Source: Dictyostelium discoideum
Taxonomy: Eukaryota
DNA: 64,000 bases
Direction: 5' to 3'
Assembly (NCBI GenBank): GCA_000004695.1
Contig: CM000152.2
Coordinates: 5,472,001 to 5,536,000, forward strand
The notes under the pieces are model-generated. The model saw nothing but the letters and a program-made list of their open reading frames with translations. It was not told the DNA's origin and did no database searches. This document shows, in pieces, positions 45,966 to 52,513 of the stretch (its first letter is position 1; every line of letters starts with the position of its first letter). The position numbers and the translations under genes were made by a program.

Positions 45966-46228
45966 TTTTGTTTGGTTAATTTGAAAATAATTGAAAAAAA
46001 AAAAATTTTGAAAAATAAAAAAATAAAAATAAAAAAAAAATTAAATAATGTCATATTTTTTAATTTTACCTTTTAAATGTAATTTCAAATTGTTACTTTT
46101 GATAGCAACAAAACTACCTCGTCAATGAATAAAATTGCCATAGGATTTTAAGATTTTTAATTATTTCATTAATTTGAAAAATGAACTCGGAACGATTTCA
46201 GGCATAAAATTTAAAAAAACATCAAAAT

Positions 46229-46299
46229 GGGAGATTAGTTAAGTGGTATAATGCTACCTTTGGGTGGTAGCGTCCTGAGTTCGATTCTCGGATCTCCCC
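46229..46299 (+). tRNA. tRNA-Pro (anticodon UGG)
   Basis: GGGAGATTAGTTAAGTGGTATAATGCTACCTTTGGGTGGTAGCGTCCTGAGTTCGATTCTCGGATCTCCCC folds as a cloverleaf. The acceptor pairs GGGAGAT/ATCTCCC. The anticodon stem is CTACC/GGTAG, the loop is TTTGGGT with anticodon TGG, and the T-loop is TTCGATT. Confidence 0.9.
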
Positions 46300-46318
46300 A
46301 AATTTTTTTAGAAAAATG

Positions 46319-46343: not shown

Positions 46344-46570
46344 AAAAAATGTGAAACCATCATCAAAAATTCAACAAGATAAATCATCAAACCAATATTT
46401 AATATTCTTTCTTATTAATAATTGGAGATGATATTGATATCCAATTTAATATCAATAATTTAATCAATTTACAAATTATTTATATCAATAGTCAAAAACT
46501 CTGGCTCATTTGGTTTTATTAATAATGGTAAATAACTTTATCTCTGATTTAAAGATAATTAATTAAATCT

Positions 46571-46640
46571 AATTTAAATTAATTTTACCACAATTAAATC
46601 TGATTTAAATTAATTTTACCACAATTAAATTCAATCTCTT
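46571..46640. repeat. Tandem ~32-bp repeat between the two tRNA genes
   Basis: aattaaatctgatttaaattaattttaccaca is repeated about 2.2 times. Confidence 0.6.
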
Positions 46641-47007
46641 AAGTAGTTTCAATTGATTGAAATATTATTAAAACTATACCTTTGAATTGGGTTTTTATTT
46701 ATTCATTTATTTATTTATCTATTAATTTATTTATTGATAATAAATAGAAAAAAATAAAAGGATAATAATAATAACTGCTTGAATCAAGTTTGATCTTTGG
46801 CTAACGTTTAATGAAGATGAAAACAAAATGATTTATTTTCTACTGAAATGATGTTTTGGGTGGATTAAAAAAAAAAGAAAATAATATTAAAAAAAAAAAA
46901 AAAAAGAAAAATATTTAAAATTTTTGCTAATAAAAAATAATTTTTTTTATTTATTTGCATTATGGTTTCTCGTAATATAAAAAAACAAAAAAAATTGAAT
47001 AATCCAT

Positions 47008-47031
47008 TCAAGAATCGAACATATGATCTCC
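47008..47031 (-). promoter_or_regulatory. Extra B-box (ex-B) downstream of the minus-strand tRNA-Pro
   Basis: On the minus strand, GGAGATCATATGTTCGATTCTTG lies about 34 nt after the tRNA 3' end. Confidence 0.6.
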
Positions 47032-47053
47032 ATATTGTTTTAAATAAATAAGT

Positions 47054-47124
47054 GGGGAGATCCGAGAATCGAACTCAGGACGCTACCACCCAAAGGTAGC
47101 ATTATACCACTTAACTAATCTCCC
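47054..47124 (-). tRNA. tRNA-Pro (anticodon UGG), second copy, inverted
   Basis: Exact reverse complement of the 46229 tRNA sequence. Confidence 0.9.
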
Positions 47125-47408
47125 ATTTTGATGTTTTTTTAAATTTTATGCCCCAAATCCTCTCGAATATTTTTTCAGCTTAACTACCTCGTCAATCAAT
47201 AAAAATTCCATAGGTGGATATTGATCAATAATGTGCCCAATAATTCACCAATCAACAAGTTTAATTACATTCAATAAAAAATAAAATAATAATGGAACTT
47301 AAATACACATTTTTAGCCTCCAAAGCTTAAGAATATCTATTTTACATAAATAACCTGTTTATTTAGATTGATCAAAAAGTTTATTTTTTAATTTATTAAT
47401 ATTCACCG

Positions 47409-48119
<711 letters not shown>

Positions 48120-48575
48120 TAATAATATTAATTTTTTTTTTTTTTTTTTTTTGTGAGATGGAGTTGAAATTAAAGAATTAAAAAAAAAAAAAATTAAAAA
48201 AAATAAAAAAAAAAAAAACAATTATTGGAAAGGTATTTCAATTTTATTTTGCTATTATTTTGAGACGGTAAAAAGGGATTTTTAAGAAATTTTTTTTTTG
48301 AATATTTAATTACAGTTGATAACTTTGTGGATCCTAATATAATAGATCCTGATTCTTTGGTGACATTCCATTCATTAATGTCGATTTGAGGGTTAATTTC
48401 ATTTAATAATTTTGATTTTATGTCAACAATCATTGCTAATGATAAAGTGTTTGAATCAATTTGTTTTGATTTTGTAGAAGAAGGAGAAGAAGAAGAAAAT
48501 TGACTTTAAATTAATAAATTATTATTATTAATTAATAAATTTGAGAAATCTTTTGATTTACTAATTAAATCTATT

Positions 48576-49215
48576 TCATTTTTTACTTAATTGAAAAGCT
48601 CTTGTTAATAATCTAAGATATTGAATTTCTTTTGAGATATCTTTAAAAATTTCGTTTTCTTTATAGTTTTTAATGATGAAAGTGTCACGTTCATTGAATG
48701 ATAAATGATTTCCACTATTTCTAATTATTTCTTTAACTTTTCTATTTGAAAAAGCATCAGTAAAAGTTATACATAATAATGGTGTAATACCTAATGAAAG
48801 TACTTCTTTTATTTTATTATCAATAAATTGAATTCTTGGAAAAGCTAAGAAATCACGAATTGATACAATGAAAATGAAACAATTGATACTATAACGTTGA
48901 TCTGGTGGTAAGATAATACAATCATTGAATTTGGTACCATGGTGTATCTTGCCATCAGCCTTCATTTTTAATATAACATCAGTAACACCCAAACCCCAAA
49001 AAATCAGAACAAGAAACATTAATATTATTAAATGATTTTTGAATTGGGGAAAGGTTATCTTTTGATGATAATAAATCTTTAAGTGAAATATTATTTATGC
49101 TCGTTGTTATTTTAGTACTCCTAGACCTATTTACCATAAAATAATCCTCTAATTGGTTGTCTGGATTGAAAAGATTAACAAGACCATTCAACAAAGAACT
49201 TATACGATTCACCAA
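48576..49215 (-). pseudogene. Frame-shifted downstream continuation of the vWA gene (two overlapping ORFs in the other two frames); possible degenerate C-terminal region
   Basis: ORFs 48979..49215 and 48576..49019 follow the vWA stop directly, with about 70% A+T coding-like composition and no AT-rich intergenic spacer. The frame switches sit at homopolymer tracts (TTTTTTGGGG). No clean GT..AG model joins them. Confidence 0.3.
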
Positions 49216-50013
49216 AATCTAAATCTCTTTTCAATTGAATAGTGAAACTTGAGTAATATTTATTTGATAAGAATTTAACTATTGTACCTGATGGTATTGA
49301 AAATTGACCATCTGGTTTTATTATAACATCTAATAATAAATCATCATAAATTAATTTAGTTTCATTTGAATTTGGATAAACCTCAATATTGAATGGAAAA
49401 TTCAAATATGGATCTTTACTACCACCATTAATCAATAATTTTATATCTTGATTAAAATTCTTTTCCAATTGAATTATTTTTTGATCTGGTAAAATTGATT
49501 GTAAATTATTAATAACAACAATATTTAGATTTGTGATTAAACTACAATTACATGCCAATCCATAGATTTCAACATTATCCAAGCTTAAATTGTCTAAAAA
49601 ACCATTAACTGAATCATCTGTCGATTTACCTGAACTAAAAATTAAAATCTTTGAATTAAAATCACTTGGTTCCCAACTTGATTCTAATATACCTTCAAAA
49701 CACAATTCCATTGCTTCACCCAATTTCGCTTCATTATTTGTTTTTGAAAATTTTATATCTTTTAAACCTTCTTTAATTTTTTCTTGTTCTGATTCAAACT
49801 CTAAAATTGTTTCAACACTCTCACCATATGTTATAATTTACAATCAATATTGAATTTTTCAAGTTGAGTAATGAAATACTTGATAATTACATTAAAAATT
49901 GACATCTGTGATGATGTTTCAATTAAAATTGAAAAATAATTAATTTTATTATTATTAATTTTAATCTCTGTTTTGAGGGTATTTCTATTTTTTTTTTCAT
50001 TTCCACCTTTCAT
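49175..50013 (-). CDS. vWA-domain protein, truncated paralog of the adjacent Sec23/24-like trunk-domain gene
   Basis: Model is join(50013..49891, 49819..49175) with a GTAATT donor and 71-nt intron. A MIDAS-like motif ILIETSSQM is present. The segment ...EKIKEGLKDIKFSKTNNEAKLGEAMELCFEGI...SKILIFSSGKSTDD aligns in pattern with ...LEKVKTLRGSGSTALGSAVAACVGI...SQIIICTDGQSNMG of the neighbouring gene. Confidence 0.5.
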
Positions 50014-50316
50014 TATTTTGTTTTTTTTATGATTTTATAAAAATAAATAAAAAAAAAAAAACAATTTATATTCATTAAAAAAAAAAAAAAAAAAAAATAT
50101 GAAAGGAAAAGTGTTTTTTCCAAATATGGTAATATTAATATTAAAATGGGTAAAAGATTTTATTCATTTTAATGTATTTTATTTAATATTCCTTTTTTAT
50201 TAAAAAATAAAAAAATAAAATAAAATAAGTCTAATTTTATATTTTTAAATTTATTAATTTTGAAGCTATTAATTTTTATTATACAATTTAATTTTGGTTT
50301 TTTTTTTTTTTTTAGT

Positions 50317-52217
50317 TTAAATGAATTTTTTCTTTGATTTTGTACTATTCATATTTGACATATTATAAAGCATATTAGCAGTTGCATCATCACGATTTTG
50401 TTGACGTGATTTTAATCTATCACCACTTGAATTATAACTCTTTTCATTTGAAACAGTATTTGATAGTTGAGTTTCAATATCTTGAGCTTGTTGCATATAA
50501 TTTGACATTGAATCGATTTCATCTGAATCGACTTTAGTAGCCTTTTGTTTCTTCATCATTACCTTTTGCATAAGTCCAGCATGTGAATAATTTTTAGCAC
50601 GAGATTTTTCATAATCACCTGATGAAGCAATCTTTGTAGAGGTTTGAACCATATTAATACCCAATGCCTCGATGTTTGCATGTTCTTCAGCCAAATCAGA
50701 GCTTGTTGTAATCTCTTGAGTTTGAGTGATCATTCTTACACATTTCTTACCAGTGAGTGTTGTATAAAAGATTTGTAATTGGAATGGTATTGATTTCAAA
50801 GATTTATCAATTAATTTAGAGGATCTAACACCATATTCAAATGAAATTGTTGTGTCTTGATTTACATTACCAATCACTCTTTCAACAAAACTCTTTTCAG
50901 TATTATTATTATTATCAAAGTCACTAACGTAAAGACCTTTATGGAGGAATATCTTAACGGATACATTTGTTGCTAAAGTAGGTAAACTAAGAATTTCTTT
51001 GAAACCATCATTTAAATTGATTGGATCCATAATGTTAACTTCACCACCGGTATTATTTGCCAATTTACCAATCACTTCAAGTTTAGTATCGGTACCTTTA
51101 ATGGTGAGTACACTAATGGAAGTACCACTTCTTTGAGCCATATTTGCAATTTGTTCAAATACCATTTGTTGTTTTTCTGGTGCTTCAGTTGCACCTAAAC
51201 CCATATTTGATTGACCATCGGTACAAATGATAATTTGTGAACCTCTTGAACCACCGGTAATACCAACACAAGCTGCAACTGCAGAACCTAAGGCAGTGCT
51301 ACCACTACCTCTTAATGTTTTAACCTTTTCCAATAATGAATTCTTTGTTTTTGAAACTGGATTATTCATTTGTAATAAACCACCTTCTTCAACCAATTGA
51401 GAGAGGTCTAATAATTTAGCTTTATCACTGATTGTAACTGGTTCAGTTGAGCCATCACCAAACATTGTAACCTTATCACTAAATGTTACGATACCAACAC
51501 GTTTATTTGGATACTTTTCAGCGATACTTTCAATTTGATGTAATAAACCAATTTGAACACATTGTAAACGTGAAACATAACTAACCTTTGTAAGAGCAGC
51601 TAGTTTTTCAGGAATTTCATTATCGTAAATACCTGAATTTGATACTAATGAACTTGGAATTGATAAACCATTTACAGATTGTGTAACTTCCATACTACCA
51701 CTAATATCAATACAAAAGATTACAAATGAATCATCTTTTTCATTCTTTTCTTTTTCATCTTTTTCTTTTTCTTCTTTAGTTTTATTGTTGTTGTTGTTAT
51801 TGTTGTTATCACCAACTGGTTCAGATTCTAAAATATAATCAATTATATTTGTTTGTGGTATTTCTTCTTTATCAATGACAATTTCATTCTCTTCATAACA
51901 AAATTCACATTTCCAAGTTTTATTTCCATCGAAACCACCATCAGTTGGAATATTTGGATGCTTTTTACCATCATTTAATGTTATCTCTTTTAATGCATTG
52001 ATATTGCTGAAACCACAATTACATTTTTTACAAAAGTAACCATCACCAGTTTGAATAGATGATTCCTTTGCAACTGTACCTAAATTGACTACTAATACAT
52101 TGGTTGTTGCTTTCTTTATTTTAGCTTTAAGTTGATTTGGTGCACGATTATTCATTGGTGCTGGTGGTGGTGCTTGTGGTGCTGCTGATCTACCAAAAAT
52201 ACTAAAGAATCCTCTTG

Positions 52218-52283
<66 letters not shown>

Positions 52284-52513
52284 GAGGTTGTTGAGGTTGT
52301 TGAGGTTGTTGAGGTTGTTGAGGTTGAGCACCTTGAAAGAAAATATTGCTATCTATTTTTTTAAAAAAAAAAAAAAAAAAAAACAAATGATAAAAATTTA
52401 ATTAATATTTTGAAATAAAAAATAATAATAATAATAATAGTAATAAACTTACCAACAACAAATTCTTCCTCTTCATCATCTTGAACAAAAGTATATTTTG
52501 AACCACAATTCAT
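50317..52513 (-). CDS. Sec23/Sec24-like protein: zinc finger plus vWA-fold trunk plus beta-sandwich, no gelsolin domain
   Basis: Model is join(52513..52453, 52352..50317) with a GTAAGT donor, 100-nt intron, phase 1. The zinc finger is CKKCNCGFSNINAL...WKCEFCYEEN (compare Sec23 C..C..LNP...W.CNFC). The vWA MIDAS is FVIFCIDISGSMEV. The beta-sandwich FQLQIFYTTLTGKKCVRMITQTQEITTS resembles the Sec23/24 QFALLYT..GERRIRV.T motif. N-terminal poly-Q/PQQ repeats are present. Confidence 0.6.

Follow-up and report, generated by a model that had tools for sequence, protein, structure and literature searches.

COPII subunits are, to our knowledge, universal; the trunks of Sec23 and Sec24 are not known to have a complete, conserved MIDAS, and the gelsolin domain of Sec23 bears an arginine finger for Sar1. 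Their solved structures (PDB 1m2v, 2nut and 3egd) present a zinc finger, a VWA trunk, a beta-sandwich and a helical region in that order. A VWA plus beta-sandwich core is also found in the archaeal ArnA/ArnB proteins (PDB 8s05, 'an archaeal ortholog of the Sec23/24 core motif'), in which, going by the PDB descriptor alone, the zinc-binding part is carried on a separate chain. Closest to the first gene described here are the proteins that were reported from Dictyostelium by Elias and Novotny in 2008 (Biol Direct 3:21, PMC2430557), which combine a zinc finger with a VWA/Sec23-24 trunk, are without a cpRAS domain and form the sister group of the CPRas1 (cpRAS-VWA) proteins. The closest relatives of the second gene are VWFA proteins of the DDB_G0275033 type, and our literature search for DDB_G0275033, or for a paraseptin with a VWA domain in Dictyostelium, returned nothing relevant.

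The window, by which we mean the whole 64,000-nucleotide stretch analysed, is dictyostelid DNA from the D. discoideum complex with a GC content of 22%. Looking up the exact sequences of three of its proteins gave no match, and close to identical proteins appear to be lacking among the homologs retrieved. Two unrelated genes lie head-to-tail in it, both on the minus strand, an intact Sec23/24-like gene being followed by a pseudogene. We are confident in reading the pair as a cpRAS-less Sec23/24-like gene beside a unitary pseudogene from an unrelated VWA/septin-like GTPase/Ubl family. The features of the intact gene are as follows.

52513-50317, minus strand: Sec23/24-like gene, two exons, 698 aa, intact
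52453..52513, minus strand: exon 1, encoding MNCGSKYTFVQDDEEEEFVV plus the first base of codon 21 (splice model)
52353..52452, minus strand: intron of 100 nt, 7% GC, GTAAGT...TAG
50317..52352, minus strand: exon 2, stop codon included
51898..52032, minus strand: four-Cys zinc finger, C128, C131 ... W167, C169, C172
50989..51726, minus strand: VWA 'trunk', residues about 230-475, Pfam VWA_2, complete MIDAS
50713..50973, minus strand: Sec23/24-type beta-sandwich, residues about 481-567, containing PFQLQIFYTTLTGKKCVRMIT
50320..50700, minus strand: all-helical C-terminal region, residues about 572-698

The N-terminus of the spliced model agrees with that of the D. cf. discoideum ortholog P0001 (MNCGSKYTFVQDEEEEE...). 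Across 37 family sequences W167, C169 and C172 of the zinc finger are invariant and C128 and C131 are at least 90% conserved; taken alone, the sequence matches Pfam zf-Sec23_Sec24 weakly, whereas searching with the family profile finds the Sec23A zinc-finger structures 2yrc and 2yrd at E 5e-5. The MIDAS (D236-x-S238-x-S240, T373 and D399) is invariant in all 37 members. The profile aligns to the Sec24A trunk, covering Sec24A residues 197-527, and this alignment continues through FQSALLYTSSKGERRIRVHT of the beta-sandwich, for which Pfam Sec23_BS gives E 0.0019 on the single sequence and in which the PFQxQIxYT..G.kc.R motif is present. An AlphaFold2 model, for which the exon-2 translation was the query, has a pLDDT of 81 and a pTM of 0.79, with pLDDT above 90 in the VWA trunk; the strands of the beta-sandwich are present in it, and from model residue 551 onwards, up to the C-terminal end, DSSP assigns nothing but helices. 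The first 95 residues form a low-complexity stretch that the model leaves disordered, and the protein carries a poly-Q/PQQ tract. No gelsolin-like domain is found in the product by Pfam, nor such a fold in the AlphaFold model, and no cpRAS, Ras or other GTPase domain is matched by Pfam. In all of this the sequence-only reading was borne out: it had proposed a gene at 50317-52513 with a zinc finger, a VWA trunk with MIDAS, a beta-sandwich motif and poly-Q/PQQ repeats, ending before any gelsolin domain, and had therefore set it apart from canonical COPII subunits.

Similarity to Sec23/24, which that reading had put forward as the test of its proposal, lies far above chance by both family profile and structure. 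Foldseek matches at ranks 1-46 are all Sec23 or Sec24 (E 8e-23 to 6e-16), with 560-700 aligned columns at 12-15% identity, and the next-best matches, 8s05 and the bacterial VWA protein 4fx5 (E 6e-12 and 2e-14), are far shorter than the Sec23/24-like protein. The 20 best matches of the family profile in the PDB (E up to 0.02) are likewise all Sec24 or Sec23, full-chain entries scoring between 3.6e-9 and 1e-5. The 36 homologs cover a range that reaches from dictyostelids as far as ciliates and marine invertebrates; Pfam Sec23_trunk, zf-Sec23_Sec24 or Sec23_BS is present in many of them, some bear the name circularly permutated Ras protein 1 (E 1e-67 to 1e-69), and in one, P0027, a canonical Rab/Arf-like domain is fused N-terminally to the same zinc-finger/VWA module. 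With the cpRAS-less group of 2008 the protein has in common four conserved cysteines upstream of a VWA/Sec23-24 trunk, the lack of a GTPase domain and the occurrence in Dictyostelium. It belongs to that group of ZnF-VWA proteins related to CPRas1, an already described family from which nothing essential sets it apart. What goes beyond the 2008 text, by profile search and model, is that the similarity to Sec23/24 runs through the beta-sandwich into the helical region, and that the MIDAS is invariant. At a dN/dS of 0.12 (against L003 and L004, the corresponding loci of two related genomes), substitution patterns indicate that the gene is under purifying selection.

We infer a biochemical role for this product, as we do below for the parent protein of the pseudogene. 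It would be a cytosolic, MIDAS/metal-dependent protein-binding adaptor whose partner may be a small Ras-superfamily GTPase supplied in trans, since relatives carry a fused GTPase in cis, either cpRAS or a canonical Rab/Arf-like domain. The putative trans-acting partner and the putative ligand binding by the MIDAS are suggested by the logic of domain fusions and by conserved motifs. The gelsolin-less Sec23/24 architecture with its invariant MIDAS has been kept from amoebae to invertebrates and repeatedly fused to small GTPases. For annotation, 'cpRAS-related Sec23/24-like zinc-finger/VWA protein' is the fitting label for the gene at 50.3-52.5 kb, and 'COPII subunit' should be avoided.

The second locus is made up of the following remains, the lesions having been mapped at base level by MAFFT alignment with the L003 coding sequence as reference.

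50013 to about 48255, minus strand: pseudogene, the remains of an intronless gene of about 712 aa
49840..50013, minus strand: segment A, codons 1-58 of the intact ortholog, start of the VWA domain with degenerate MIDAS IETSSQM
49840/49839, minus strand: 7-nt deletion after segment A, a frameshift (MAFFT alignment to the L003 coding sequence, tblastn)
49202..49839, minus strand: segment B, codons 61-278, the remaining VWA domain and the first half of the beta-sandwich
49202/49201, minus strand: 224-nt deletion ending segment B, codons 279-353 lost together with the P-loop GDVGSGK
48998..49201, minus strand: segment C, codons 354-419, GTPase switch region
49004-48998, minus strand: T-run with an extra T (+1) ending segment C, within the DxWG (G3) motif
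48586..48997, minus strand: segment D, codons 420-557, the remaining septin-like GTPase domain with ITFTD
48586/48585, minus strand: 5-nt deletion after segment D, a frameshift
48255..48585, minus strand: segment E, linker and remnant of the ubiquitin-like domain
48508-48506, minus strand: TAA nonsense codon in segment E (MAFFT alignment to L003)
48427/48426, minus strand: 96-nt in-frame deletion in segment E (MAFFT alignment to L003)
48282/48281, minus strand: 4-nt deletion in segment E, scrambling the last codons

Further in-frame changes are found in segment B (+3, -15 and -3 nt) and segment E (deletions of 12 and 15 nt). Tblastn recovers the same five pieces, in frames 0, 1, 0, 2 and 1, with residues 280-353 missing. 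Where the family ORF has about 650-750 codons, the window copy is interrupted by four main frameshifts, the TAA and the scrambled 3' end, and translation from its own ATG yields at most 60 aa. The frameshift-corrected translation matches Pfam VWA at E 2.5e-6 across the first frameshift and retains ILIETSSQM (family motif IL[IV]E[TN]S), and it matches the intact 712-aa protein P0037 at E 1.9e-253, as well as some 16 further VWFA proteins of Dictyostelium. ORFs that follow one another in changing frames at 50013-48576, the first of them VWA, had already been noticed and read as possible decay; ortholog match, lesion map and tblastn agree that this is one decaying gene and not a set of unrelated ORFs. 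The disrupted region from 48576 stands, but the gene runs about 320 nt further than had been proposed, to about 48255, and the ORF at 48194-48433 is its C-terminal remnant. The region 48.2-50.0 kb is thus better annotated as one pseudogene than as three or four small genes. Inactivation took place in situ: the gene lost 7, 224 and 5 nt in three frameshifting deletions, gained one nucleotide and a nonsense codon, and was shortened further by several deletions that keep the frame. Some residual transcription may persist.

The parent architecture consists of a VWA domain with degenerate MIDAS, a beta-sandwich, a septin-like P-loop GTPase, a low-complexity linker and a ubiquitin-like domain. A profile of the GTPase region, which shows the motifs GxxGxGKS, HVT, DxWG and [IV]TFxD, matches septin G-domains (Septin-12/3/9) over about 185 positions at E 1e-8 to 1e-7, and Pfam Septin appears in only 6 of 21 family members, below or near threshold. 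The term 'septin-like' rests on these profile-sequence matches because the AlphaFold model of P0037, built on an alignment of only 13 sequences, is of low quality in the GTPase domain, with pLDDT under 50 over residues 322-621; only its VWA, beta-sandwich and Ubl parts were used in Foldseek, where Ubl folds are matched by the C-terminal domain with TM values of 0.76-0.78. In contrast to septins, the family is without septin-unique elements or a coiled coil and is fused to VWA and Ubl domains. We therefore call the GTPase septin-like and not a septin, and from sequence the matches may reflect the wider septin/AIG1/Toc (TRAFAC) clade. In proteins of the DDB_G0275033 type (P0046, P0037) the VWA, beta-sandwich, GTPase and Ubl parts follow one another as in the window copy; compared with them, the window copy is without the P-loop and part of the Ubl, and its reading frame is broken by four to five frameshifts as well as a nonsense codon. 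The 224-nt deletion thereby removed the Walker A/G1 motif GxxGxGKS, whose G and K are invariant in the family. The window copy is a dead member of this DDB_G0275033-like family, whose relatives we found in Dictyostelia and Pelomyxa alone, where a genome has several copies in tandem. That the parent proteins make up a fast-turnover amoebozoan GTPase family not described before, acting for instance as a module of cell-autonomous defence or of self/non-self recognition, is a speculative and rather unlikely reading.

In L003 the gene for P0037 is syntenic and intact, a single 2139-nt ORF with no intron, and the pseudogene is 92.5% identical to it at the DNA level over 1758 aligned columns. The gene order WD40, Sec24-like, VWA/GTPase gene and Rab-like is common to L003, L004 and L005, and the flanking genes match those at P0037, P0041+P0052 and P0051, which establishes orthology by position. 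In L004 the copy has four frameshifts differing from those of the window; at codon 419-421, where the window has its +1 T, L004 has a +1 A, which yields TAG. In L005 a 382-nt deletion lies in the GTPase core; these two copies appear to have been broken independently. No trace of the VWA/GTPase gene was found in L001 and L002, a sensitive blastn search of the 'empty' site of L001 finding no remnants, and both are missing the adjacent Rab-like gene as well. For the pseudogene dN/dS reaches 0.55, whereas at equal dS (0.12) the two flanking genes have values of 0.12-0.15. Comparing the intact copy of L003 with the broken one of L004 also gives a dN/dS of 0.6, from which it follows that the whole locus may have been weakly constrained for some time.

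Several other explanations have to be set against this reading. For the upstream gene, a divergent but true COPII subunit (a Sec24 isoform) would account for Sec24/Sec23 being its best structural and profile matches. Compared with Sec23/Sec24, however, it has no gelsolin domain, shares only 12-15% identity and possesses a long poly-Q/low-complexity N-terminus, its MIDAS is complete and conserved, unlike those of COPII trunks, and its orthologs are a cpRAS-related group that is scattered and absent from most eukaryotes; we consider this explanation highly improbable and conclude that the protein is not a COPII subunit. Nor do the two loci appear to be tandem paralogs of one Sec23/24-like family with the downstream one a decaying duplicate, as the sequence-only reading had proposed from aligning sequence patterns. 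Both have a VWA-fold domain followed by a beta-sandwich, the models of both match the archaeal ArnA/B entry 8s05, and hhalign gives E 6e-4 for the VWA core, yet its probability is just 28.5% over 135 VWA-core columns and BLASTP between the two products gives a best E of 4.6. The downstream family is without a zinc finger, has a degenerate MIDAS and carries the septin-like GTPase and Ubl; the top 50 PDB matches of the P0037 model are generic VWA proteins (ANTXR2, integrin beta3, vWF A1) with no eukaryotic Sec23/24 among them, and the true relatives of the downstream product are a separate set of Dictyostelium and Pelomyxa proteins. Direct paralogy was rejected, BLASTP and profile-profile comparison yielding only generic VWA-core similarity, and we regard a duplicate origin as very improbable: the pseudogene belongs to another family.

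The downstream gene might instead be intact in the organism, its frame breaks being sequencing or assembly errors such as homopolymer miscounts, a suspicion that the sequence-only reading had also raised. The genome is extremely AT-rich and homopolymer-rich, and the +1 T does lie in the T-run 49004-48998, but it is the only one of the four main frame-breaking lesions at a homopolymer, the other three being the deletions of 7, 224 and 5 nt, so that decay has proceeded mostly by multi-base deletions and not, as had been suggested, by frameshifts at homopolymers. None of the deletions of 7, 224, 5, 96, 15, 12 and 4 nt, nor the TAA substitution, is a homopolymer-length error; non-synonymous divergence is raised four- to five-fold with dS unchanged, and two other independently assembled genomes carry different disabling lesions in the same gene. 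With the P-loop deleted, a nonsense codon present, dN/dS raised and broken copies elsewhere, error is very unlikely. It is less credible still that a functional shorter VWA protein is made, either by splicing the ORFs together as exons or by programmed frameshifting between them. Short, AT-rich introns are typical of dictyostelid genes, and a 58-nt GT..AG stretch at 49134-49077 could join two frames (frame 2 to frame 0); as an intron it was rejected, because the 2139-nt ORF of the intact ortholog reads uninterrupted and in frame across it, the real cause of the frame change being the +1 insertion further down. At the first break the frame changes within about 6 nt, four frame changes and a nonsense codon would have to be bypassed, and the P-loop and part of the Ubl are physically absent. 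The single spliced gene that had been envisaged thus fails, as the intact ortholog has one exon and the frames overlap, leaving no room for introns.

Read as a unitary pseudogene, the VWA/septin-like-GTPase/Ubl locus offers a clean natural case of a gene that is polymorphic for presence, decay and absence inside a single species complex, usable for dating gene loss or for picking strains for functional tests. The Rab-like gene beside the VWA/GTPase gene is without the catalytic Gln. At this locus the two genes travel together as a cassette, which very close relatives possess whole, in decay or not at all.

Overall the locus consists of an ordinary gene lying beside an ordinary unitary pseudogene. 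The window has a GC content of 16–30%, with poly-Q and poly-N tracts and introns that are short and very AT-rich, so that bacterial-style ORF lists are misleading and introns need to be considered. In both protein and DNA it is best matched by genomes from the Dictyostelium discoideum species complex. Syntenic loci were compared in two 'D. discoideum' assemblies (L003, L004), two 'D. cf. discoideum' assemblies (L001, L005) and Dictyostelium purpureum (L002). The first four are 88–95% identical to the window in DNA, with a dS of ~0.12 for the Sec24-like gene in each case and of 0.08–0.14 for a Rab-like gene at the three loci that have it. Orthologs in L003 and L004 are ~97% identical to the window products, and protein searches with these products returned no match above ~94% identity to any of them.

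The Sec24-like gene comprises an ORF at 50317–52386 and a short ORF ahead of it starting at 52513. Splicing out a 100-nt intron (7% GC) at the junction GTTG/GTAAGT ... AAATAG/AT gives a protein of 698 aa, whose N-terminus, MNCGSKYTFVQDDEEEEFVVDSNIFFQGAQ, agrees with that of the annotated D. cf. discoideum ortholog (P0001), and this bears out the extent of 50317–52513 proposed in the sequence-only reading. With a dN/dS of 0.12 (against L003 and L004), the gene is functional. The extreme N-terminus (52513–52453; M-x-[CF]-[AG]-S-K-Y followed by an acidic run) and the basic/aromatic C-terminal end (...KSKKKFI) are kept in the family alignment across homologs as far apart as those of Dictyostelium, brachiopods and sea cucumbers, with disordered low-complexity sequence between them; these ends may be targeting or lipidation signals.

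With the single sequence, VWA_2 is the Pfam match that passes threshold, and those to Sec23_BS and zf-Sec23_Sec24 are weak. Decisive evidence comes from the family. Its 36 homologs are found in dictyostelids and other amoebae as well as in ciliates and marine invertebrates; many carry precomputed Sec23_trunk, zf-Sec23_Sec24 or Sec23_BS annotations, and the name 'circularly permutated Ras protein 1' is given to several of them. Across the alignment of 37 sequences, W167, C169 and C172 of the zinc finger never vary and C128 and C131 are nearly invariant (at least 90%); the MIDAS set D236-x-S238-G-S240, T373 and T398-D399-G400 is invariant. Searched against all PDB sequences, the family profile finds Sec24A, Sec24 and Sec23 as top matches, the Sec24A alignment (E 3.6e-9) running through trunk and beta-sandwich into the first part of the helical domain and pairing PFQvQItYtkldGmkclRv with FQSALLYTSSKGERRIRV; the isolated Sec23A zinc finger matches the profile with E 5e-5. 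The AlphaFold2 model (pLDDT 81, pTM 0.79) agrees, with Foldseek ranks 1–46 in the PDB all being Sec23/Sec24 chains (E 8e-23 to 6e-16, 560–700 aligned columns), followed by a bacterial VWA protein and then the archaeal ArnA/B complex. The recognition of Sec23/24 similarity from raw sequence was thus correct. Only helices run from the beta-sandwich to the C-terminus in the model, which therefore lacks a gelsolin-like domain.

This family is not new, having been in the literature since 2008. CPRas1-type proteins combine a cpRAS domain with a VWA domain (Pfam 'Sec23/Sec24 trunk') and a probable four-Cys zinc finger, and 'remarkably similar' cpRAS-less proteins form a separate group in Dictyostelium, Entamoeba, some metazoans and ciliates (Elias & Novotny 2008, PMC2430557); the Sec24-like gene belongs to this cpRAS-less group.

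As for function, the protein would act as a MIDAS-dependent protein-binding adaptor with a Ras-superfamily GTPase as its partner. This proposal draws on the invariant MIDAS and on fusions of the same module, to the cpRAS domain in CPRas1 and to a canonical Rab/Arf-like domain in its relative P0027 (LLIGDSGVGKS ... WDTTGQE ... NKCD ... ETSAK). A Sec23-type GAP mechanism is unlikely, as the arginine finger of Sec23 is carried by the gelsolin domain, which is absent here.

The downstream element had been read as a tandem paralog of this gene, which proved mistaken. Three-frame translation of 50013–48576 reveals a single coding-like track with four frame switches, the first of which leaves no space for introns. 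Joined, the pieces form a 480-aa conceptual protein, residues 1–163 of which, spanning the first break, give a Pfam VWA match (E 2.5e-6), and which has no detectable similarity to the Sec24-like protein (best BLASTP E 4.6). Profile–profile comparison of the two families yields a probability of 28.5% over 135 VWA-core columns, and they share a fold superfamily without recent common ancestry. Database searches instead recover a distinct Dictyostelium set of 'VWFA domain-containing' proteins (690–770 aa), including AX4 DDB_G0275033, with P0037 (712 aa) the top match (E 1.9e-253). P0037 is encoded in L003 by a single 2139-nt exon and is the positional ortholog of the pseudogene, since the order WD40, Sec24-like, P0037 gene, Rab-like is common to L003 and the window.

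Base-level alignment to the L003 coding sequence (92.5% identity over 1758 aligned columns) places the following lesions in the minus-strand pseudogene:

49840/49839, 7-nt deletion, frameshift
+3, -15 and -3 nt changes that keep the frame
49202/49201, 224-nt deletion, frameshift; codons 279–353 lost, including the P-loop GDVGSGK
49004–48998, 1-nt insertion in a T-run within the DxWG motif, frameshift
48586/48585, 5-nt deletion, frameshift
Ser-rich linker, 12-nt and 15-nt deletions, both in frame
48508–48506, nonsense codon, AAT to TAA
48427/48426, 96-nt deletion in the C-terminal domain
4-nt deletion scrambling the last codons

Independently, tblastn finds five pieces in frames 0, 1, 0, 2 and 1, with residues 280–353 missing. 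From its own ATG the pseudogene could yield a product of only 60 residues.

The decay is real and not a product of sequencing or assembly error: just one of the lesions alters the length of a homopolymer, dN/dS is raised and the copies in other genomes are broken differently. At the same dS (0.12), dN is 0.068 versus 0.014–0.020 in the neighbours, and dN/dS 0.55 versus 0.12–0.15. In L004 the copy carries four other frameshifts, its annotation being split into two genes (P0041, P0052), and in L005 it has a 382-nt deletion within the GTPase core. The sequence-only reading was therefore right about decay, but the family is a different one, homopolymer slippage is not the mechanism and the interval is longer: the remnant reaches ~48255, 320 nt past the lower coordinate given in that reading, with ORF 48194–48433 as its tail. 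Of the six genomes compared, one has the VWA-GTPase gene intact and three have it in decayed form; the other two, L001 and D. purpureum L002, lack both it and the Rab-like gene, and no remnants were found there.

The +1 insertions in the window (T, 49004–48998) and L004 (A, creating TAG, ~9260) fall in the same DxWG codon; dS is 0.048 between L003 (intact) and L004, and 0.12 between either and the window. Recurrent mutation, ancestral polymorphism or recombination could account for the shared codon.

In the parent family, the VWA domain, whose MIDAS is degenerate (IL[IV]E[TN]S..M), is followed by a beta-rich middle domain and a P-loop domain with motifs GxxGxGKS, HVT, DxWG and [IV]TFxD. This last is predicted to be septin-like (TRAFAC class) from profile matches in the PDB, best to septin G-domains (Septin-12/3/9, E 1e-8 to 1e-7, ~185 positions), and from weak Pfam matches of single members to RsgA, MMR_HSR1, Septin, Dynamin_N and AIG1. 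The P0037 model is confident in its C-terminal 90 residues, which match bacterial ubiquitin-like proteins (TM 0.76–0.78), and poor elsewhere; for its VWA and beta-sandwich part the matches are generic VWA proteins (ANTXR2, integrin beta3, ArnA/B), and the top 50 include no eukaryotic Sec23/24. Searched exhaustively with an HMM, 1.84 billion representative proteins yielded only 79 clusters; of ten looked up, all unnamed or 'hypothetical', nine belong to Dictyostelia or to the archamoeba Pelomyxa, and the tenth is a metagenome protein without attribution. Mild novelty lies only in this family, uncharacterised and with the architecture VWA/septin-like GTPase/Ubl, and in how rapidly it turns over. 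The family has several copies per genome, and two other members, P0044 and P0049 (strain ACTFIW; tags ACTFIW_009973 and _009974), are adjacent tandem genes, a pattern that fits fast expansion and contraction.

Beyond the pseudogene lie:

47409–48119, minus strand, Rab-like gene directly downstream (Pfam Ras, E 8e-43)
47054–47124, minus strand, tRNA-Pro(UGG), in arm 47038–47175
46229–46299, plus strand, tRNA-Pro(UGG), in arm 46178–46315

The Rab-like gene, under purifying selection (dN/dS 0.15), occurs only in genomes with the VWA-GTPase gene. Its G3 motif, WDSQADE, is without the Gly and the catalytic Gln, and its product has a poly-Q tail of >40 residues and the terminus CLIQ. The inverted tRNA pair, set within 138-nt arms of 89% complementarity, lies at the far edge of a 3.9-kb block (46344–50260) without an L001 counterpart, and L001, L003 and L004 all have related tRNA-containing repeats at this same place.
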